Shown: in pieces, positions 7,598-58,850 of the stretch
Layout of the letters: every line of letters starts with the position of its first letter
Numbering within the stretch: the stretch's first letter is position 1
Source of the DNA: Kiritimatiellia bacterium
GTDB taxonomy: Bacteria > Verrucomicrobiota > Kiritimatiellia > RFP12 > UBA1067
Reading direction: 5' to 3'
DNA: 64,000 bases
NCBI GenBank assembly: GCA_045656225.1
Contig: JAZOQU010000022.1
Span: forward strand, 4,732-68,731
Notes under the pieces: generated by a model
The model's input: the letters and a program-made list of their open reading frames with translations, nothing else
Databases searched by the model: none
What the model was told of the DNA's origin: nothing
Translations under genes and position numbers: made by a program

Positions 7598-9288
7598 TAC
7601 TGCTCCTCAGTAACGCGCATGATTTCCTTGACGCTCGTAACTCCGCGAAAAGCCTTAGACCAGCCGTCTTCACGAAGCGTCTTCATGCCTTTGGCCATGG
7701 AACGGTTGCGGATCTCCGTCGCGTTTTCACGACGGACGATCGCTCCCTCTATGTCTTCATCGACCTCGAGCACCTCGAATAAAGCGCGACGCCCCTTATA
7801 TCCCGTTCGCGAACAGGAATCACACCCTATGGGCTCGAAAACCGTATTCTTTTCGGGCGCGTAATCAAGAGTGTAATACTTCATGTCGAGAGGGACTTCC
7901 TTCATACACTTCGGGCAAAGACGGCGGCATAGACGCTGCCCCATGACGCCGGCAACGGCCGAAGCGATCAGAAACGGCTCAACACCCATGTCGATCAGAC
8001 GCGGGAAAGCGCCTGCCGCATCATTGGTATGCAATGTCGAAAACACCATGTGACCCGTAAGCGATGCGTTAATCGCGATTTCAGCGGTCTCGCGGTCACG
8101 GATTTCACCGACCATGATGATATCGGGATCCTGACGCAGAAACGCTCTCAGTGCGCGCGCGAACGTCATACCGATATCGGCCTGCATCTGAACCTGATTG
8201 ATACCGGCCATATGATATTCGATCGGGTCCTCGGCAGTCATGATTCTCACGTCGATCTTATTGACTTCGTGAAGGAATGAATAAAGCGATGTCGATTTAC
8301 CGGAACCGGTCGGTCCGGTGACCAGGAAAATCCCGTTCGGACGGCGGATAATCCTGTCGACTACGGCAAAATCACGATCATTGAATCCAAGGTCGGCCAT
8401 CTTGACGAAACTGCCGCTCTTGGCGAGAAGACGCAGAGAAATCGACTCGCCGTACGCGGCAGGCATGGTTGAAACGCGGATATCGATATCCTGTCCCGAA
8501 ATTCTGATGCCGATACGACCGTCCATCGGCAGACGCTTCTCGGCGATATCGAGATTGGCCATAACCTTGATACGCGAAATGATCGCCGCCTTCAACCTGT
8601 TCAACTGCGGCGGGACGTCTACCTTGTGAAGCATACCGTCGATTCTATAACGTATCCGAAGTTCGGTTTCCTGAGGTTCGATATGAATATCGGTCGCGCC
8701 TTGACGGTCGGCTTCAACGATGATCTGGTTCACAAAACGGACGATCGACGCTTCCTCGCCCATTTCATTGACGTCGATCTTGGTCATCGTGCTGAATTCA
8801 TCGTCGACGGAATAGCGGTCGTCGTCGATCATTTTTTCAATCGCATCGGCACCGACACCGTAATATTTTTTGACGGCTTTCTCAACCTCGTCCTTGGTAC
8901 ATAGCACCATTTTCATCGGACAGTTGGCGACAAGCCTCAATGAATCCGCCGGAGTCGTATCAAAAGGATCTGAAACGACAATCGTCATCGACTGGCCGTC
9001 GTAACGGTACGGTAAAACATTGTATTGATAAACGGCACTGGCAGGCACTTTAGTCAAAGCGTCCGCTGTAGGTTGATTATGCTCAAGATCGACCACCTCA
9101 AGACCAAGCGCGGAACCGAACGCCCCAAGAACATCGATTTCGCGGTGACCGCCGAACTTGACAGCGGCTTCGCAAAGTCCCATTTCAGGATTCTCAGTCC
9201 TGCCGGAAATAATGCGGGAAATCTGCTCATCGGAAAAAATCCCGGCAGATTTAAGAACAATGTTCGTTAGAGACAAACTTTCACTCAT
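7597..9288 (-). CDS. gspE: GspE/PilB-family secretion ATPase (type II secretion / type IV pilus assembly)
   Basis: N-terminal T2SE_Nter-like domain, Walker A GPTGSGKST, and a tetracysteine CxxC...CxxC motif. The stop overlaps the rpoN start by 1 bp. Confidence 0.8.
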   Translation of the reverse strand: MSESLSLTNIVLKSAGIFSDEQISRIISGRTENPEMGLCEAAVKFGGHREIDVLGAFGSALGLEVVDLEHNQPTADALTKVPASAVYQYNVLPYRYDGQSMTIVVSDPFDTTPADSLRLVANCPMKMVLCTKDEVEKAVKKYYGVGADAIEKMIDDDRYSVDDEFSTMTKIDVNEMGEEASIVRFVNQIIVEADRQGATDIHIEPQETELRIRYRIDGMLHKVDVPPQLNRLKAAIISRIKVMANLDIAEKRLPMDGRIGIRISGQDIDIRVSTMPAAYGESISLRLLAKSGSFVKMADLGFNDRDFAVVDRIIRRPNGIFLVTGPTGSGKSTSLYSFLHEVNKIDVRIMTAEDPIEYHMAGINQVQMQADIGMTFARALRAFLRQDPDIIMVGEIRDRETAEIAINASLTGHMVFSTLHTNDAAGAFPRLIDMGVEPFLIASAVAGVMGQRLCRRLCPKCMKEVPLDMKYYTLDYAPEKNTVFEPIGCDSCSRTGYKGRRALFEVLEVDEDIEGAIVRRENATEIRNRSMAKGMKTLREDGWSKAFRGVTSVKEIMRVTEEQ

Positions 9289-43628: not shown

Positions 43629-44108
43629 CTACAGCCTCTCAACTGCAGCGAAAACTTTTGCCGCGAGAGAGTCTGATAGCTGCCACATACCGACATTGCC
43701 GCGGCATGGGATGGGTTCGGGTAAGCGCCTTACGTTCGAGAGGTCCCACCAGAACCGATAGCCTTCATCCCATTTCTGCTTTGGCGTTGGCTTGGACTTA
43801 TAGACACCATCCTCCAACACTAGATTTAAGCCATCCCGCGCCTTGTAGTCACAAACTGCAATAATCTTACCAGGCCAATCCTTAACCTCGCGCCAAGAAG
43901 GAAGCTTCTCAAAATCCTCGTCCGAAAGCTCATGCGCAGCCATCGCCATAAACATCCCATATTGCTCCTTGCAAAACGACTTCGAACACGAAATCGCCAC
44001 CCGCCCTTCCCTCGGCTCTGGCATCATACTGCGATTCTCCGTCCGCTTGATTCCGTAAAGAATCATAATCGCATACGATCCAGTACAAGTAAAGGCGTTC
44101 ATAATCAA
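43629..44108 (-). CDS. ASCH-domain protein
   Basis: ASCH signature GxKxxExR present as GIKRTENR. About 70% amino-acid identity to the N-terminal half of the ASCH–RadC fusion at 49492..50319. Confidence 0.6.
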   Translation of the reverse strand: MIMNAFTCTGSYAIMILYGIKRTENRSMMPEPREGRVAISCSKSFCKEQYGMFMAMAAHELSDEDFEKLPSWREVKDWPGKIIAVCDYKARDGLNLVLEDGVYKSKPTPKQKWDEGYRFWWDLSNVRRLPEPIPCRGNVGMWQLSDSLAAKVFAAVERL

Positions 44109-49491: not shown

Positions 49492-50319
49492 TTAAAGTTT
49501 GTCCATCACTGACACATACCCTCGCCCTTCATCGCAATCAGGCGAACCAAGGATGAGGTGGTCAAGAAACTTGATACCAAGCAGTTGGGCGGCGGATTGC
49601 AATGCTTTAGTAATCTGCAAATCAGCCCTGCTCGGCGTAGGATTGCCGCTTGGATGATTGTGAGCGACGATGATTGCATCTGCCTGCGCCTTGAACGCCG
49701 CACGAAAGACTTCTCCCAAGTCCACGGTTGTTGTGCCTTGCGTGTGTCCGAGAGATACAAGCACAGGCAAACCAATCGGGCGACACTCCGCGTCAATCGG
49801 CAACACAAAGAAACCTTCCTGCTCACCCGCAATCGGAATTGCCACACGAAACAGCGGATAGGCGTCATCTGCCGTCTCAATGCGCGAGTTCAAAGCACAT
49901 TCAGCCGCAGACACTTTTGCCGCAAGATCGGACGGCATCTGCCACATGCCGACGTTGCCGCGGCAGGGAATCGGTTCGGGTAAACGCACAACGTTCAACA
50001 AATCCCACCAATACGGATAACCCTCGCCCCAAGATTCGGCTTTCTGCCTTTGCCGCGCCTTGTAGTCGCACACGCCAACAATCTTGCCCGGCCAGTTCTT
50101 CACCTCGCGCCACGCGGGCAGTTTCTCGAAATCCTCTGGCGACAGGCTCACCGACGCCCACGCGATGAACTGCCCGTACTCTTCTTTGCAAAACGACTTC
50201 GAACACGAAATCGCCGCCCGCCCCTCGCACGGCTCCGGCCACGCGCTGCGGTTCTCCGTGCGCTTGATTCCGTAAAGAATCAATATCGCGTATGCTCCAG
50301 TGCATGTAAAGGCGTTCAT
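49492..50319 (-). CDS. ASCH domain fused to a RadC-like JAB/MPN domain
   Basis: N-terminal ASCH (GIKRTENR) paralogous to 43629..44108. C-terminal JAMM-type motif VAHNHPSGNPTPSRADLQIT typical of RadC. Confidence 0.7.
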   Translation of the reverse strand: MNAFTCTGAYAILILYGIKRTENRSAWPEPCEGRAAISCSKSFCKEEYGQFIAWASVSLSPEDFEKLPAWREVKNWPGKIVGVCDYKARQRQKAESWGEGYPYWWDLLNVVRLPEPIPCRGNVGMWQMPSDLAAKVSAAECALNSRIETADDAYPLFRVAIPIAGEQEGFFVLPIDAECRPIGLPVLVSLGHTQGTTTVDLGEVFRAAFKAQADAIIVAHNHPSGNPTPSRADLQITKALQSAAQLLGIKFLDHLILGSPDCDEGRGYVSVMDKL

Positions 50320-50780: not shown

Positions 50781-51779
50781 TTATCCCTTGAAAACATATT
50801 GACGATGATATTCCATGTATTTCTCTCTTTCATCATCTAATGGAAGTGCTTGAATATACGAACCCGTCTTGATATTACATTTAGCTTGGTTTGTGGGAGA
50901 TATCCAATTGGAGACTAACATACACTTCTTTTCATCAAAGGAAATAAACCCCTGATCAAACAAACGGTCATAAAGCGGAGATAATATGAATCCGTTTTTA
51001 GGATCAAATGCTTCATCGTCTTCTGATACAGAATATGGTTTTATATGACTCGCAACCAATAGTCTTTCATCAGAAATCTTGGTTATTGGACAATAGGGAC
51101 ACTCTTCCAAAAGTTTATCTCGATATCTCTTTTGGGCAACCGCATCACGATTACTTGTTTTTACAGATGTTTGTATCTCTTTCTCCTGTTTAGCGGCATT
51201 GTTATCACTAACAGAAGCTGTACCTTTCCCATAAGTAAACACTTGTGGAGTTAGCCCTCTTTGTTTTAATGCATCGAAATCCACGAAAAGTTTCCAGTAA
51301 TAACGAATCATCCCTTTGGGATCAGATAATCTCATAATAGAGATATAACTTATCAATGGAAGAGAAAGGGTTCTAAAAAGCTTGTATGCAAGATCATTGG
51401 AATTGATATATCCACGAGGTCCCGCAATTTGTGTTTGGACATGTACTTTAAATTCAATAATATCAGGCATCTTCAACAACGACCGAACACGCTCTTCCCA
51501 CAATTCGGGCATTTTGGATTTGCCTGCATAATTTTGAGTGGGGAACTTGTATTCCTTCTCGGCTGTCTGCATGTATTTCAATAAATCACTTTTCAAGAAA
51601 AAGCAATCTATAGTAGACGCGCCAAGAACGAACGAATGTAAATCAGATTTTGATCCGAAGTAGAATTTAGCCTCTCCGTTCCCTGTACCAAGTTTATTAG
51701 GTCCAAGAACATTGCAATCTGGAACTGTCAGAATGCGTGAGACATCTTGAAATTTATAAGTCTTTCCATCAATTCTCAT
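50781..51779 (-). CDS. HNH_2-type (His-Me finger) endonuclease, putative restriction enzyme partner of the adjacent methyltransferase
   Basis: C-terminal CPYCPITKISDERLLVASHIKPYS...NGFILSPLYDRLFDQGFISF, an ASHIKP...N...H-type HNH_2 core. 4-bp overlap with the methyltransferase stop. Confidence 0.6.
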   Translation of the reverse strand: MRIDGKTYKFQDVSRILTVPDCNVLGPNKLGTGNGEAKFYFGSKSDLHSFVLGASTIDCFFLKSDLLKYMQTAEKEYKFPTQNYAGKSKMPELWEERVRSLLKMPDIIEFKVHVQTQIAGPRGYINSNDLAYKLFRTLSLPLISYISIMRLSDPKGMIRYYWKLFVDFDALKQRGLTPQVFTYGKGTASVSDNNAAKQEKEIQTSVKTSNRDAVAQKRYRDKLLEECPYCPITKISDERLLVASHIKPYSVSEDDEAFDPKNGFILSPLYDRLFDQGFISFDEKKCMLVSNWISPTNQAKCNIKTGSYIQALPLDDEREKYMEYHRQYVFKG

Positions 51780-53848
51780 TTCTCGACCTCCTCCTTAAAC
51801 AATTCGGGAATAACATTTTTGATAGAGTCAAGTATCGCAACAAGCACATCAACGACAATAGCATTTCCTGCTTGCTGATACATTGGAGTGTCCGGAACAA
51901 CAATTTTAAAAGTATCGCTAAATCCCATCAGCCTGAGACATTCTCTCGGCGCTAATTTTCTAATTCTACCTTCCCTAGTTATGTAATTATCAACACCAGC
52001 TCTGTGCATTTTATGCATAGAGGTTAACAAAGGTCTTGCTATCTCCAAGTCAGTTTTGGGTCGAGAATAAAAGGTTTTAGTTCCTGTAGAAAGAACGTAC
52101 TTTCTCACCTTTTCAGAGAGAAAATATTTTTCAAGTTCAGGCATTCCAAAGCTCTTGGCAGTCTCTTCATCAACGAAAACAAAATCTCCGTGCCAATTAA
52201 ATTGCTGATTCTTCTTTTGACATAGCTGAACCTTGCCGTCAACTTGTGTATACCGCTTTGTAAGATTTCCCTCATCAAGAACAAATCGAACACCTTTTTC
52301 TGGAAGATAGTATTTACCTGGAACGACATCAAGTAAATAATCTTGCATCGTCGTTTTTAGTTTCTTCGGTGCTGGAAATTTGAAGCTTCCACCGATTTTT
52401 AAATCCTTACGAAACCCAACAACAAAAACACGTTCCCTATTTTGTGGTATTCCATAATCCTTAGAATTTAACACTTGATAATGCCAGTCATAACCTAAAT
52501 CTGTAAAAATCTTTGAAATAGTAGCCCATGTTTTTCCACCATCATTACTCAACAGTGCACGAACATTTTCATATATGAAACATTTTGGCTTAATTTCTGA
52601 TACTAAACGAGCATACTCATAAAACAATGTGCCACGAGTATCAGATAATCCCATCTGCTTGCCTACAAGACTAAACGATTGGCATGGGCTTCCTCCAACA
52701 AAGAGATCGACTTCATTTTTGTATGGCGCCCCCTCAAGAAATGTAACATTCCAATGAAATCTATCATCTGTAACCGGGTAATTCGCCATATATGATTGGC
52801 GAACCTTATTTCGAGGAAGCATTGGTCGATAAAGCATATCGACTAACTTCTTTCTTTCTTGCCAATCCTTTTCCGATTCCCAACCAACTCTAAATTTGTA
52901 AAATCCAATTGCTTCATGAAGCATTTGAACGCGGTCTTTTAACTCACGCTCAGGTCGCTTACTCATAGCTGGCGCACCGTCTAACAATGCCTGAATATTA
53001 TTGCGCTGATTTACAATCAACTCATAGGCCTGTTGAAGGCTTTCGCTGTTTGGCTTTAACTCGTCAATGCGCTCGCATAATTCCTTAAACGCCGCCACAC
53101 ATTCAGACCATTCTTTAGCACCACAAACAAAAGGAGTTTGGTCGCCATTATCACAAGCAAAAACAATTTCATGAGCGACATGAGTACGCAACAATGCTTG
53201 TTCAATAGCTCCTATCCCGCTAAAAACTGTCGCTAGTCTTAATTTTTCGCCTTTGGCTGATAACGCTTGTGCAACAACAGGCATTAAGCCATCGAAGAAA
53301 TCCAACTGTACTGGATTAAACGTTGTAGCTGAATGCCATTTCTTGAAATATGGTTTTAGTTTGTCAAAGATGTACGGCATTGACTTTCCGCCAGTTTTGG
53401 GGTAGGGCTTAGCGTAAAATGCCGCGTCAATCTTTACATTAGGACAACGCTGTGACGAAACAAAAACGTCTGCCGCGGAATCAGAAAGTGTCGCGGCAAA
53501 AGAAACCTTCTCTCCAAGTTCATATAGCGCGTATGCTGAACCATGCGCTTTATCTGCCGCGGCAACTTTATAACCATTTTCTTTGAGCCACGCGGCATCT
53601 ACAACTTCACGAAACTTTGCTTCGTAAGCTAAAGGAGTAAATCCATCAGCGATTAGAACGATTCGTGATATATTTTCATGAAACGCAACTTTCCCACAAG
53701 GCGGCAATGGAAGATTATAGAACTTCTTCTCCTTAATCCATTCCGCATTTTCCTTGCGAAAAGTCCCAACAAGAACAGCTGTATTAGCTTTATTTTCCCT
53801 TTTCTTTCCCATCTTCAATTCACTTTCTTTATCGCTCATATCATCCAC
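51776..53848 (-). CDS. DNA (cytosine-5)-methyltransferase with a ~200-aa N-terminal extension and a ~100-aa insertion between motifs I and IV
   Basis: Motif I ATVFSGIGA, IV GGSPCQSFS, VI ENVRALL, VIII QNRERVF, IX RKLAPRECLRLMGF, X GNAIVV. The likely true start is MSDKESELK at 53839, with AGGTGG 5 nt upstream. Confidence 0.85.
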   Translation of the reverse strand: MDDMSDKESELKMGKKRENKANTAVLVGTFRKENAEWIKEKKFYNLPLPPCGKVAFHENISRIVLIADGFTPLAYEAKFREVVDAAWLKENGYKVAAADKAHGSAYALYELGEKVSFAATLSDSAADVFVSSQRCPNVKIDAAFYAKPYPKTGGKSMPYIFDKLKPYFKKWHSATTFNPVQLDFFDGLMPVVAQALSAKGEKLRLATVFSGIGAIEQALLRTHVAHEIVFACDNGDQTPFVCGAKEWSECVAAFKELCERIDELKPNSESLQQAYELIVNQRNNIQALLDGAPAMSKRPERELKDRVQMLHEAIGFYKFRVGWESEKDWQERKKLVDMLYRPMLPRNKVRQSYMANYPVTDDRFHWNVTFLEGAPYKNEVDLFVGGSPCQSFSLVGKQMGLSDTRGTLFYEYARLVSEIKPKCFIYENVRALLSNDGGKTWATISKIFTDLGYDWHYQVLNSKDYGIPQNRERVFVVGFRKDLKIGGSFKFPAPKKLKTTMQDYLLDVVPGKYYLPEKGVRFVLDEGNLTKRYTQVDGKVQLCQKKNQQFNWHGDFVFVDEETAKSFGMPELEKYFLSEKVRKYVLSTGTKTFYSRPKTDLEIARPLLTSMHKMHRAGVDNYITREGRIRKLAPRECLRLMGFSDTFKIVVPDTPMYQQAGNAIVVDVLVAILDSIKNVIPELFKEEVEK
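53802..53841. repeat. 40-bp perfect direct repeat (copy 1) covering the methyltransferase start codon
   Basis: tttctttcccatcttcaattcactttctttatcgctcata is identical to 54965..55004 and encodes MSDKESELKMGKK on the minus strand. Confidence 0.85.
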
Positions 53849-53866
53849 CTATCATGCGCCCTGCCA

Positions 53867-55003
53867 TCAGTCGCATTTCCCTTTCTCAGAAAGACGATTT
53901 CGTGCAGCCTCTATCGCCAAACGGAACTTCGCCTCCAGCACCTTCTTCGGCGGCAATTCCGTCATATATGACGCGACCCTTATATTGCTACGCCCCAACT
54001 CCAACAATTCAACATGTTCCTCGTTCTTCCCAGCGCACAAAATTAATCCGATTGGCTTGTTTTCACCTTTGCACATCTCATTCTTCTCAAGCCATTTCAA
54101 ATACAACTCCATCTGACCTTTGTACTCAGCTTTAAAAGTATCTATTTTGAGGTCGATAGCCACAAGCCTGCGAAGACGCCTGTGGAAAAACAATAAATCA
54201 AGATAATAATCTTCGTTGTCCACGCTGATACGCTTCTGTTCTGCAAGAAACGCCATATCACCACCAAGCTCAAGTATAGCGTTCCTCATGTCTGCAACAA
54301 GAGCCTTCTCAAGTTCCTTCTCCGAAAAATTGCCGCGCAGCCCAAGAAAATCTAAAACATACGGATCTCGAAAGGCAAGGTCGGCAGACATCTTGCCTTC
54401 TTCACGCAGTGCTTCCAAATCCTTTTTTATAACTGCCTTAGGCTTTTTTGCTATTGCTGTACGTTCATACATCATCGAAGCGATGCGTCCTTGCAATGTA
54501 CGCGTCCCCCAATGTTCCGTTGCGCACATTTCAAGGTAGAACTGCCTCTTAAGAGAATCTGAAATGTAAGAGAGCGTCTTGATGTGCGTCCACGACAATT
54601 GTCTCCGCAATGCGGAGAGAATCTCATCCTCGCCGAAAGTCTCCGCGGCGCGGAGACAATGCCTCAACGTCTTCTCATCCCATCCACCCCCATGAAAAAG
54701 CATAAGACGAGATGCCAACCCCTTGACAACCTTCTTACCATACTCAGCGCGACCGCAACCGAGAATTTCTCTATTAATGCAGTTGCCAACATTCCAATTC
54801 AATTTGGTCAACTCAGTATTAACTCCAACAGCCACGCGCTCCCTTGCCGCTGTTATCAATGATGATATTTCGTTGAAGAGCCTGGTAATCGCATCATCTA
54901 CAAAATTGACACCTGATGATGATTGTCCTAAAACATCATTTTTCTCTTTAACTTCAGAACTCTTTTTCTTTCCCATCTTCAATTCACTTTCTTTATCGCT
55001 CAT
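53867..55003 (-). CDS. YhcG/DUF1016-family PDDEXK nuclease-like protein
   Basis: YhcG-like N-terminal motifs (LSWTHIKTL) and a C-terminal PDDEXK-like core (VAIDLKIDTFKAEYKGQMELYLKWL). Start set to MSDKESELK (55003); the track's 55048 start crosses the upstream HTH gene. Confidence 0.6.
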   Translation of the reverse strand: MSDKESELKMGKKKSSEVKEKNDVLGQSSSGVNFVDDAITRLFNEISSLITAARERVAVGVNTELTKLNWNVGNCINREILGCGRAEYGKKVVKGLASRLMLFHGGGWDEKTLRHCLRAAETFGEDEILSALRRQLSWTHIKTLSYISDSLKRQFYLEMCATEHWGTRTLQGRIASMMYERTAIAKKPKAVIKKDLEALREEGKMSADLAFRDPYVLDFLGLRGNFSEKELEKALVADMRNAILELGGDMAFLAEQKRISVDNEDYYLDLLFFHRRLRRLVAIDLKIDTFKAEYKGQMELYLKWLEKNEMCKGENKPIGLILCAGKNEEHVELLELGRSNIRVASYMTELPPKKVLEAKFRLAIEAARNRLSEKGKCD

Positions 55004-55004
55004 A
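54965..55004. repeat. 40-bp perfect direct repeat (copy 2) covering the YhcG-like start codon
   Basis: See copy 1. Confidence 0.85.
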
Positions 55005-55013
55005 GTCTTCGCC

Positions 55014-55217
55014 TCATTCATGCACAACGTCCATAATATCGCCAACATTGCAATTTAGCACCTTGCATATTCTCGTCATCAGATCAAACGAGATATACTC
55101 ATCTTTAGATAACTTTGCAAAGGTAGACGAAGACGCGCCGACAGCTATTCGCAGATCTGTCCGCGTCATTTCTTTATCTATAAGAAGCTTCCACAATTTC
55201 TTATACGAAACACCCAT
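55014..55217 (-). CDS. Small HTH (XRE-like) DNA-binding protein, candidate R–M controller (C-protein-like)
   Basis: 67 aa from MGVSYKKLWKLLIDKEMTRTDLRIAVGASSSTFAKLSK. AGGAG RBS 7 nt upstream. Extended -10 element TGgTATAAT about 35 bp upstream. Confidence 0.55.
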   Translation of the reverse strand: MGVSYKKLWKLLIDKEMTRTDLRIAVGASSSTFAKLSKDEYISFDLMTRICKVLNCNVGDIMDVVHE

Positions 55218-55344
55218 ACCATCTCCTAATTGACGTGTAATATTATACCAAATCACATCCTAAACATACAAATATAACCTTTGACTTTTCAAAGGTGGAC
55301 AGATATGAAAAAACTGCATTTTATACCTTATTTCATACCCAAAC

Positions 55345-55400
55345 AGTGCGCATCTCTCACTTGAAAAGTGCGCACTTCTCGACCAAGAGGTGCACACTTC
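55345..55400. promoter_or_regulatory. Three direct repeats (a)GTGCGCAcTTC phased at 22 bp
   Basis: agtgcgcatctc at 55345, agtgcgcacttc at 55367, ggtgcacacttc at 55389. They lie between small ORF copy 1 and the HTH promoter. Confidence 0.6.
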
Positions 55401-55457
55401 TTTTCTTGGAGCTTACGACACCCCATCAACCGCTTTGCGCAATCGCCGCTTGTCGGA

Positions 55458-55619
55458 TTACGCTTTCAGCAGCGCAAGAATACCGCATAAAATGATTATC
55501 CCGAGAAACCACACAACACACTCGAGGCACGACTGCGTGCCGTCGCATGAATCATCCGGTCCGGAAGGCATCCTTAAGCCTCTCTCAAACTCCTCTTTAA
55601 ATTTTTCCCATCTAGTCAT
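55458..55619 (-). CDS. Small tail-anchored Cys-rich membrane protein (53 aa), copy 1; below the ORF-track size cutoff
   Basis: MTRWEKFKEEFERGLRMPSGPDDSCDGTQSCLECVVWFLGIIILCGILALLKA, with RBS AAGGTGA 4 nt upstream. Lies inside a ~180-bp repeat (55444..55627). Confidence 0.45.
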   Translation of the reverse strand: MTRWEKFKEEFERGLRMPSGPDDSCDGTQSCLECVVWFLGIIILCGILALLKA

Positions 55620-55758
55620 AATCACCTTTTATCATAAAATATAAACCACACCTACCCCAATCCTGTTAATCCTGTCAAAAAAACTTTATCCACAAATCTG
55701 CACATATCGACACAAATCAATTTGTGGAAATTTGTGACGATTTGTGGACTCCAACTCC

Positions 55759-56160
55759 CTACCCGAACAACTTCTCAACCAGCTCTCTATCCGCAGGACA
55801 AAAATCAATATCGCGCATTTGATCTACCGTTACCCAGCGAATCTCCTGATGTTCCAATGCTTGCGGCACAGCCCCATTTTTCGGATTACATTCGATCAAT
55901 GTAAGACGAATTGTCTTTTCGGGATATTCATGCACAACAGAATCGATAATTCGCTCGTTTTCAATCTCTAGCGCCAGCTCTTCAAGACACTCTCGCTTAA
56001 GCGCCTTTTCAGAAGTTTCGCCAGGCTCGATCTTCCCACCCATAAACTCCCATAATCCACCCTGCGACTTATGCGCCGGCCGCTGCCCGATAAGATACTT
56101 ATCACCATCTTTGATGATGGCTCCAACAACCTCTATCACATTATCATTATACATTTTCAA
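55759..56160 (-). CDS. NUDIX hydrolase (MutT-like)
   Basis: Nudix box GGKIEPGETSEKALKRECLEELAL. Confidence 0.8.
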   Translation of the reverse strand: MKMYNDNVIEVVGAIIKDGDKYLIGQRPAHKSQGGLWEFMGGKIEPGETSEKALKRECLEELALEIENERIIDSVVHEYPEKTIRLTLIECNPKNGAVPQALEHQEIRWVTVDQMRDIDFCPADRELVEKLFG

Positions 56161-58615: not shown

Positions 58616-58659
58616 ATCTTCTAATCTCCAAGCAACGAAAGTATCAGCCGCTTGTCGGA

Positions 58660-58821
58660 TTACGCTTTAAGCAGAGCAAGAACAACGCACAAAACGATTA
58701 TCCCGAGAAACCACACGACACACTCAATGCACGACTGCGGGCCGTCGCATGAATCATCCGGTCCGGAAGGCATCCTTAAGCCTCTGTCAAACTCCTCTTT
58801 AAATTTTTCCCATCTAGTCAT
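58660..58821 (-). CDS. Small tail-anchored Cys-rich membrane protein (53 aa), copy 2
   Basis: MTRWEKFKEEFDRGLRMPSGPDDSCDGPQSCIECVVWFLGIIVLCVVLALLKA, with RBS GGTGA. Lies inside repeat 58644..58827, 30 bp downstream of the GH gene stop. Confidence 0.45.
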   Translation of the reverse strand: MTRWEKFKEEFDRGLRMPSGPDDSCDGPQSCIECVVWFLGIIVLCVVLALLKA

Positions 58822-58850
58822 AATCACCATCGCTCCACACTTGCAGAAAT

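Follow-up and report, generated by a model that had tools for sequence, protein, structure and literature searches.

The process closest to the one described here is 'insertion with long target duplication', which the Kobayashi group defined for restriction-modification (R-M) units (Furuta et al., 2010; PMC2853133), citing an original report from Helicobacter pylori (their reference 37). These insertions are characterized by the absence of mobility genes, by variable direct repeats of more than 30 bp, by a single copy of the repeated segment in a related genome, and by R and M genes within the insert; the mechanism is given there as unknown, double-strand breakage is suggested as a common factor, and gene fusion is noted during such insertions (PMC2853133). 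The second relevant background is the YhcG/DUF1016 family (Pfam PF17761 and PF06250; PADLOC PDC-S02), genes of which are enriched beside Type I R-M systems, BREX and inverting loci (PMC9881135) and have also been described between core hsd genes; a Nostoc plasmid locus (L096) has the same layout, with a DUF1016 gene between hsd genes. In the literature on DUF1016 and PDC-S02 we found no description of mobility, flanking repeats, start-codon capture or internal palindromes. The locus reported here lies in a 64,000-nucleotide stretch of a Kiritimatiellia bacterium (GenBank assembly GCA_045656225.1, contig JAZOQU010000022.1, positions 4,732 to 68,731 of the forward strand; hereafter the window). 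In it a YhcG-type nuclease gene and the adjacent Dcm-type methyltransferase gene of an R-M operon begin with the same 41 bp, which is probably the duplicated 5' end of the methyltransferase gene, bracketing an inserted and exchangeable YhcG gene. Long target duplication is known for R-M units; what would be new here is a lone nuclease gene inserted inside an R-M operon and capturing a start codon.

The window shares several features with the described insertions. Its repeat (41 bp) is longer than 30 bp and is present in a single copy in the related loci L086-L088, the relative used for this comparison (L086) being 88-92% identical and possibly the product of a secondary deletion; the insert lies in an R-M context, holds only the YhcG open reading frame (ORF), and has no transposase or integrase. 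It differs from them in that one PD-(D/E)XK nuclease gene makes up the insert, with the methyltransferase as the target and not the cargo; in that the duplicated target is a start codon region, from which the insert would be translated; and in that the slot is re-used by different inserts. Like the DUF1016 passengers of defence loci, the window encodes a full-length DUF1016_N and YhcG_C protein within an R-M operon. The features of this operon are the following:

54964-55004, minus strand: repeat copy 1 (L1), the start of the YhcG gene; perfect 41-bp repeat.
53800-53840, minus strand: repeat copy 2 (L2), the start of the Dcm methyltransferase gene; the same 41 bp.
53867-55003, minus strand: YhcG-type PD-(D/E)XK nuclease, 'YhcG-A', 378 aa (Pfam DUF1016_N and YhcG_C).
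53887-54963, minus strand: body of the exchangeable slot; L086 lacks it, and L099-L107 have an unrelated YhcG paralog in its place (breakpoints from blastn).
53841-53886, minus strand: tail and spacer, that is, the last codons (..EKGKCD*) and a 26-nt intergenic stretch; travels with copy 2.
51776-53839, minus strand: C-5 cytosine DNA methyltransferase, 'Dcm687', 687 aa (Pfam PF00145, E 2e-67).
50781-51779, minus strand: HNH_2 endonuclease, 332 aa (Pfam PF13391; PADLOC HNH / REase_II).
55014-55217, minus strand: HTH_26 (Cro/C1-type) helix-turn-helix (HTH) regulator, 67 aa, the first gene of the operon (Pfam PF13443, E 6.7e-18).
55263-55292, minus strand: sigma-70-like promoter match TTGAAA-18-TATGTT upstream of the HTH gene; a consensus match only.

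The direct repeat is perfect (41 bp, 100% identical, with a start-to-start spacing of 1164 bp) and purine-rich. An earlier note on this DNA had reported a 40-mer present twice: there are indeed exactly two copies in the window, at 53801-53840 and 54965-55004, the first of which had been placed one base too far (53802-53841), and the identity runs one base beyond the 40-mer to give the 41 bp. No further copy of the 40-mer is found in the window even at 3 mismatches, and none of 100 dinucleotide-preserving shuffles contains a match with 3 mismatches allowed; an exact 20-mer scan of JGI metagenome contigs returned one match (L085), which lies within an unrelated gene and is judged to be chance. 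On the minus, coding strand the repeat consists of 1 nt, the ATG, 12 codons and 1 nt (MSDKESELKMGKK), both copies reading T-ATG-AGC-GAT-AAA-GAA-AGT-GAA-TTG-AAG-ATG-GGA-AAG-AAA-A; it is protein-coding sequence and neither a tRNA nor an att site. The common start opens two ORFs, the YhcG-type (378 aa) and the C-5 cytosine methyltransferase (687 aa), and past codon 13 their sequences are unrelated, both as the note had it; if both starts are used, the predicted N-terminal peptides are MSDKESELKMGKKKSSEV.. and MSDKESELKMGKKRENK.., respectively. Its further claim that the ribosome-binding site (RBS) context belongs to the repeat does not hold: a single base 5' of the ATG lies within the perfect identity, and the Shine-Dalgarno-like stretches differ (GAGGCGAAGACT before YhcG and TAGGTGGATGAT before the methyltransferase; by our own count 8 of 11 positions match). 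The 80-nt stretches preceding the two copies display no significant similarity, with 127 of 2000 shuffles scoring equally well, and on the same count we dropped the idea that the spacer before copy 2 is the decayed 3' end of the HTH gene, that is, the trace of a longer original duplication.

The assignment of the first protein is supported by its domains: DUF1016_N scores 120.9 bits (cut-off 32.8, E 5e-35) and YhcG_C 154.5 bits (cut-off 32.5, E 3e-45), both nearly full length, and the protein matches the PADLOC candidate single-gene system PDC-S02 with E 4.6e-114. A sequence search of the Protein Data Bank for YhcG gave no match. The HTH_26 gene ends 10 nt before repeat copy 1, Dcm687 carries an extra N-terminal domain of ~210 aa, and the start of the HNH_2 gene, the presumed restriction partner of the methyltransferase, overlaps the methyltransferase stop by 4 nt.

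Several lines of comparison assign the shared start to the methyltransferase. Its closest homolog, P0001 (693 aa, hereafter Dcm693), is 95% identical to Dcm687 and has the N-terminus MSDKKSGVKMGKK (more fully MSDKKSGVKMGKKMENK); hence, the start belongs to the methyltransferase lineage, the more distant homologs having different N-termini. P0001 is encoded on 5 contigs in all, among them L086-L088, in which the gene order is HTH_26, an 8-bp gap, Dcm693 and HNH_2, with no YhcG gene and with the start region present once. By blastn, L086 6711-7040 corresponds to window 55296-54964 (92%), an alignment that stops at the inner edge of copy 1, and L086 6992-10086 to window 53850-50772 (88%); since L086 6992-7040 aligns to both window copies, the one leader of L086 corresponds to both of them. 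Relative to L086, the window has 1164 extra bases, made up of the YhcG body, the 46-bp tail and spacer, and the second 41-bp copy.

Close YhcG relatives (P0122-P0127, L074) begin with a methionine of their own, e.g. MKVKSKKSVCIQASPSVATVDDAIDRLFNEIS, with the general form MK.K.KK... The equivalent stretch of the window protein (..SSEVKEKNDVLGQSSSGVNFVDDAITRLFNEIS) is without an ATG and is in frame from the 13 codons of the repeat, the first in-frame ATG after the repeat falling at about residue 112; likewise, at the nucleotide level the homology to YhcG of L007 and L074 begins only at 54903 and 54902, respectively, its end for L007 being 53883. By these alignments the YhcG gene has lost its own ATG and would be read from the start codon of the methyltransferase. 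Related Dcm genes in L101 and L106 natively start with MKMEKKK/MKMGKKK, a further sign that the leader originated in a methyltransferase gene. Thus, of the two routes offered by the earlier note, recombinational grafting applies to the YhcG gene, since the start is native to the methyltransferase, YhcG relatives have different N-termini of their own, and the YhcG-free operon has the region in a single copy; gene conversion between two pre-existing genes is not the best description, and the event is better described as gene insertion or replacement in a slot, with duplication of the target 5' end. The related loci carry Kiritimatiellae organism names and come from rumen and gut metagenomes; a YhcG-A protein identical to that of the window is found on 7 independent contigs.

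The slot behind the HTH_26 gene is occupied in different ways in different genomes. Within the contig collection, 192 index blocks hold exactly this 67-aa HTH protein; of the 10 loci shown, 8 have a gene beginning with the leader 8 bp after the HTH gene, and in 6 this gene is annotated as DUF1016_N + YhcG_C. Wherever such loci were read in detail, the gene after HTH is a different paralog, 'YhcG-B' (MSDKKSGVKMGKKKCVAVNAEAGFYEQVRDVF..). The window aligns with the YhcG-B modules from 55447/55442 to 54963 and again from 53886 onward, with no homology over the body in between, the modules that stop at the inner edge of copy 1 (54963/54964) being L099, L101, L106 and L107. YhcG-A and YhcG-B share the frame, the first 13-14 codons, the last codons (..GKCD*/..GKCG*) and the spacer, and in L099 and L104 the tail-spacer segment follows YhcG-B. 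The occupants of the slot include:

L101: YhcG-B and DUF6119.
L106: YhcG-B, Dam and AAA_21.
L103: an ORF6N gene and a remnant of the YhcG-B 3' end.
L086: nothing.

Second copies of the leader are not restricted to the window: one of 37 nt stands at the start of the next Dcm gene, 2.8 kb downstream, in L101, and one of 27 nt at the next Dcm gene start, 3.7 kb downstream, in L106 (0 of 2000 shuffles in each case), while the insert of L002 is bracketed by ~51-nt copies that are roughly 88% identical and match at 36 of 41 positions (again 0 of 2000 shuffles). Two alleles of the leader can be distinguished, which differ at 4 of 41 positions (L086 versus the window, own count). The 'K' allele (..AAAAAGAGTGGAGTGAAG..) is the upstream copy of the YhcG-B modules, L089 and L086; the 'E' allele (..AAAGAAAGTGAA[A/T]TGAAG.., MS[DS]KESE..) is found in all downstream copies and occurs at both positions only in modules of the window type. 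The perfect pair of the window fits both a fresh 41-bp duplication in a window-like locus and conversion of an older imperfect pair, and the lack of differences between its members carries little information because only 41 bp are compared and the closest modules diverge by 1.5%. At this same slot, L074 (RUG12190; 6194-7654) and L103 (4213-5756) have the same HTH_26 head followed by RhuM-like (by motif), ORF6N and YhcG-paralog hybrid genes, the YhcG hybrid breaking ~22 nt after its internal palindrome; DUF1016, RhuM and ORF6N therefore appear to be interchangeable at the slot.

Copy 2 is re-used before other genes. L001-L006 match the window at 98.5% identity over the segment 55447-53819, and what lies downstream of it differs: a Dcm386 / HATPase_c_3 / Z1 system in L001, L003, L004 and L005 (L006 is a 1.3-kb contig that ends before the downstream system), and a Dcm368 / AAA_5 system in L002. 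In L089-L092, where the segment is 94% identical, a 458-aa gene comes after it and then Dcm and BpuJI_N genes. The homology ends inside copy 2, after 22 nt in L001, 26 nt in L089 and ~41 nt with five mismatches in L002; altogether copy 2 stands before at least 6 unrelated downstream genes, with its first 22-27 nt and the Shine-Dalgarno-like site conserved. It is joined to the downstream gene in two ways: by in-frame fusion, as in the window and in L002 and L093 (MS[DS]KESEMKM[DG]KENKKLNVVS, where other members of the L002/L093 Dcm family start M.K...LNVVS), or as a coupled 8-codon ORF with a stop that overlaps the next ATG (ATGA), namely VSDKESEK* in L001 and MSSKESEI* in L099. The tail-spacer-leader segment is also found after an unrelated 278-aa gene (L093), and 40-bp remnants are present in L089 and L103; YhcG deletion scars and an independently recombining tail-spacer-leader unit account for these equally well. 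Judged from such junctions, the tail-spacer-leader region is a frequent recombination junction and a predicted shared 5' adapter for expression.

Repeat-flanked YhcG genes are also seen elsewhere. L007, a Kiritimatiellae metagenome-assembled genome, has two adjacent YhcG paralogs that both start MQKRV(K/T)RESLKVKK(E/A)TGAVV: here an 84-bp, 93% identical repeat (RBS, ATG and 19 codons) brackets the first gene, the stop of which lies within the second copy. Across YhcG loci from 78 species of many phyla, direct repeats of 33-239 bp tightly bracket a single YhcG gene in ~14 loci, the bracketed units being mostly 1.07-1.45 kb (2.0 kb in L018). When all ORFs of at least 300 aa in the YhcG loci were subjected to the same test for repeats of at least 30 bp, tight flanking repeats were found for 11 of 39 YhcG ORFs versus 2 of 375 others (Fisher p 8.5e-11). 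The repeat sequences of different loci are unrelated to one another: some are 3' ends of upstream genes, one (L035) is the first 101 bp of another Dcm gene, and several in Bacteroidales end in TAnnTTTG-type promoter boxes (own reading) before housekeeping genes. The latter, named from their N-terminal sequences, we take to be pheT, rfbA and queD. No conserved terminal motifs or inverted repeats were seen by eye at the ends of the repeat-flanked inserts.

Among the non-YhcG ORFs, one of the 2 positives is a 449-aa gene directly upstream of YhcG in L019 (Candidatus Brocadia pituitae AP021856.1, 6409-7758), with a direct repeat of 64 bp (94%) tightly bracketing it. On the Citrobacter freundii plasmid pC50_001 (L095, NZ_CP042479.1, 1769-4032) a YhcG homolog of 48% identity overlaps the 3' end of a site-specific (tyrosine) integrase gene by 4 nt, an overlap suggestive of a two-gene unit; the plasmid belongs to a family of large conjugative plasmids of Enterobacteriaceae, some of which carry two YhcG copies. 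The presence/absence polymorphism of yhcG in E. coli offers no clean empty site: 3,438 of 5,426 complete genomes match at least 80% of the yhcG query region (L094:7400-9300), and the sampled rows of lowest coverage align to the nanQ end alone, from ~50 bp past the yhcG stop, a match that begins just beyond the external palindrome copy of E. coli yhcG. Several E. coli genomes have yhcG interrupted by an insertion sequence (IS) element.

These observations can be brought together in the following scheme, which we consider probable. The starting unit would have been a type II R-M operon of an HTH_26 regulator, a Dcm methyltransferase and an HNH nuclease, into which a promoter-less YhcG coding sequence was placed in frame directly after codon 13 of the methyltransferase. 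The upstream copy of the start region gives YhcG its start codon and first 13 codons, and the downstream copy, together with the 26-nt spacer holding a Shine-Dalgarno-like AGGTGGA 7 nt before the ATG, restores an intact methyltransferase start. The two starts would thus be identical because YhcG sits within the first codons of the methyltransferase, with the start region duplicated on both sides. All genes of the operon are likely to be transcribed from the promoter upstream of the HTH gene, no other minus-strand promoter-like match being found in 53600-55800, including between YhcG and the methyltransferase; YhcG would be translated from copy 1 and the methyltransferase from copy 2 via the spacer AGGTGGA. 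Selection would then favour arrangements that keep the methyltransferase expressed. Recombination between the identical copies could, conversely, delete YhcG precisely and leave an HTH-M-R operon; in E. coli, RecA-dependent exchange needs at least about 25 bp, less than the 41 bp available here. As to the origin of the duplication, one may speculate on fill-in of a staggered break with nicks 41 bp apart or on homology-facilitated illegitimate recombination anchored in the leader, and, equally speculatively, on catalysis by the YhcG nuclease itself. Both the direction of the event and its mechanism are inferred.

A number of points weigh against this scheme. The HTH-YhcG arrangement is by far the commoner one, and L086 could therefore have arisen by deletion, through recombination between the copies, instead of being a site that was never occupied; being only 88-92% identical to the window, it is also not the immediate ancestor. 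The upstream copy of the window is of the type that others carry only downstream, which points to a secondary event, for instance conversion or a swap of bodies, and away from a single clean insertion. The exact junction of YhcG-A with Dcm687 was not found in another assembly: the exact Dcm687 protein is not on record in other assemblies and the exact HNH protein only on two short contigs, neither of which reaches the junction, so the precise junction of the window lacks independent confirmation. Beyond this operon, target duplication at the YhcG loci of other phyla would follow from the pattern of repeats and not from an empty site; furthermore, E. coli K-12 yhcG and two plasmid YhcG loci have no flanking repeats, and hence such repeats are frequent and not universal.

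The upstream allele leads to the most serious competitor, namely a recent short-patch conversion of the methyltransferase-side copy onto the YhcG-side copy in an older, imperfect flanking pair, which we regard as possible if doubtful, and which may have acted in addition to insertion. The YhcG-B modules and L089 carry different alleles upstream (MSDKKSGVKMG..) and downstream (MS[DS]KESE..), only window-type modules have the downstream type at both positions, and the edges of perfect identity coincide with those of the leader common to all bodies. However, a recent duplication is likewise expected to have zero mismatches over 41 bp at the 1.5% divergence of the closest modules, conversion leaves the existence of two copies unexplained, and, as L001-L006 combine the same upstream copy with a truncated downstream one, the 41-bp donor must have been a window-like locus. 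The earlier note had also raised a shared cis-acting element: a leader selected for translation initiation, or as the target of the HTH protein or a small RNA (sRNA), that couples expression of nuclease and methyltransferase. The purine-rich repeat with its minimum free energy (MFE) of 0 kcal/mol would favour initiation, and the conservation of the first 22-27 nt of copy 2 and its Shine-Dalgarno-like site before at least 6 unrelated genes agrees with this part of the idea. The same lack of structure (the flanks have z-scores near 0) speaks against a structured target, as does the Rfam search, in which the repeat matches no family, the sole match being far below threshold and located elsewhere. 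Moreover, the copies differ at several positions in most modules and the arrangement is nonetheless retained, the YhcG-flanking repeats of other phyla are unrelated sequences, and the conservation is explained by the place of the segment at the edge of a recombining module; a selected leader is thus an improbable reason for the repeat.

Cassette exchange by a trans-acting site-specific recombinase, using the 41-mer (or spacer and leader) as an att-like site, would account for the two boundaries shared by many gene sets and for the clustering of downstream-replacement breakpoints within ~20 nt inside copy 2, and one plasmid YhcG gene does overlap a tyrosine integrase gene. Yet the breakpoints are nested instead of falling at one fixed position, the site has no inverted repeat or hairpin, and the flanking repeats elsewhere (33-239 bp, of unrelated sequence) are unlike one att site. 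No recombinase gene lies in or adjoining the window slot: none was found among the ORFs of 90 aa or more at 41-50 kb and of 40 aa or more at 50-59 kb, the family-library scan covering the vicinity of the slot. This reading is, hence, highly improbable. An assembly artefact, in which the 41-mer would have bridged two strains or a collapsed or duplicated read path, has a probability close to negligible: it agrees with the YhcG-A / Dcm687 combination being unrecovered elsewhere, with the unrecorded exact Dcm and with the two short contigs for the exact HNH, but the two-copy architecture recurs in independent assemblies (L002, L101 and L106, with partial second copies in L001-L006 and L089-L092), both reading frames are intact, and 41 bp is shorter than the k-mers that decide the final contigs in current assemblers. 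Insertion of YhcG with duplication of the methyltransferase 5' end thus remains the reading that we prefer.

The YhcG genes contain a further unusual element, a 25-nt palindrome in the region coding for DUF1016_N, where it encodes I-[VWL]-x-x-[LV]-x-x-[QK]-L immediately ahead of SW[ST]H. Its positions are:

54594-54618 and 54640-54660, window: palindromes in the YhcG gene, at the same gene position in L007-L083.
8129-8233 and 8969-8995, L094: palindromes of E. coli yhcG, three tandem copies and one after the stop.

It is near-perfect (at least 9 of 12 positions paired) in 55 of the 55 YhcG genes put in register, out of 59 examined, and its arms vary by lineage through compensatory changes, e.g. 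ATTGTGACACCACTGGTGTCACAAT, ATTTGGACACCAGTGGTGTCCAAAT and ATTCTCTCCGCATTGCGGAGACAAT. Over 34 sequences 91% of cells pair as against 68% in shuffles (0 of 500 reach this value), the covariation score is 0.53 versus 0.15 with double changes at 7 of 12 pairs, and controls in which the palindrome was slid are 27-50% paired. Mismatches of the G·T (14) and A·C (13) kinds are equally common, which points to a palindrome acting at the DNA level rather than to a sense-strand RNA hairpin. In the window and in L007 the same arms recur in a second palindrome, which lies 39 nt upstream of the first and in a different frame.

A wider proposal would be that YhcG/DUF1016 (PDC-S02) genes are autonomous single-gene mobile elements that insert with long, variable target duplications. 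The PD-(D/E)XK nuclease would in this case make widely staggered breaks or promote homology-anchored illegitimate joining, possibly acting through the conserved, covarying 25-nt palindrome that nearly every gene of the clade contains; insertion would often take place at promoters or gene starts, such that the duplication provides expression signals while the host gene stays active. We consider this unlikely.

The window can also be set against other known arrangements. Controller (C) proteins govern type II R-M operons such as PvuII and Esp1396I; comparably, a small HTH gene heads the methyltransferase and nuclease genes in the window, with a tandem repeat upstream of the promoter-like site. 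The regulator, however, is of the HTH_26 type (VanU-like, below cut-off) with no match to the PADLOC control-protein models, and the order is C-M-R with the nuclease last. Homing endonuclease genes resemble the YhcG insert as selfish-looking nuclease genes between or within host genes that use host expression signals; homing does not duplicate its target, whereas the target in the window is duplicated. As with integron cassettes, promoter-less genes stand behind one expression head and alternative occupants take the same position; cassettes need IntI and attC hairpins, and the window is without an integrase or attC-like structure. Transposons and IS elements, which make short target duplications of fixed length, differ in turn, since the inserts have no transposase and no terminal inverted repeats at their ends, and the repeats around YhcG genes range from 33 to 239 bp.

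The operon lies in a larger region that looks like a defence island: the G+C content is 0.38-0.44 at ~43.5-57 kb as against ~0.50, and the minus-strand order is HTH_26, YhcG, methyltransferase and HNH_2, then a RadC/ASCH fusion, a DUF262-type protein (GmrSD-like, by motif), and others. Upstream of the promoter-like site of the HTH operon there are three tandem units of ~22 nt (window 55345-55398; AGTGCGCATCTC.. / AGTGCGCACTTCTC.. / GGTGCACACTTCTT..), which may be putative operators for the HTH_26 protein. A short ORF of 55-56 aa (MIMTRWEKFKEEFERGLRMPSGPDDSCDG..), which matches nothing in Pfam and ends in a hydrophobic C-terminus, lies within a 182-bp direct repeat (94%; 55445-55626 and 58647-58828). 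One copy of this repeat has its inner end right beside the left edge (55442-55447) of the conserved HTH-YhcG module. At ~55687-55748, a DnaA-box-like cluster (read by eye) comprises a perfect TTATCCACA and inverted TTTGTGGA/TCCACAAA repeats with 29-nt arms that are 79% complementary. This cluster, also found at L089 909-961 and L103 4929-5000, is kept at 97-100% in other assemblies, and in L089 and L103 it adjoins the 40-bp remnant of the YhcG 3' end and spacer. Finally, two paralogous genes (43629-44108 and 49492-50319) have a common ASCH-like N-terminal region by our own reading (MNAFTCTG.YAI.ILYGIKRTENRS..), which one of them joins to a RadC JAB domain, the other gene being short. The 5' ends of the pair, separated by 6.2 kb, make up a direct repeat of 105 bp (83%) that brackets the DUF262-type gene of the island and a 668-aa gene.

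The arrangement reported here explains how a gene with neither promoter nor start codon can join an operon without breaking an essential gene, given that losing the methyltransferase of such an R-M operon would kill the cell. It links a widespread candidate defence gene, DUF1016/YhcG (PDC-S02), to a form of gene movement described for R-M systems, and the repeat-flanked YhcG genes of many phyla offer a simple one-gene model for long target duplication. The HTH_26 and leader 'head' with its exchangeable genes is a compact case of a defence island being rebuilt at a shared 5' adapter. The covarying palindrome, for its part, constrains the YhcG protein sequence and gives a lead to what YhcG nucleases recognise. 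If YhcG genes were indeed autonomous elements, they would represent a new class of bacterial mobile element and would provide a mechanism for insertion with long target duplication.

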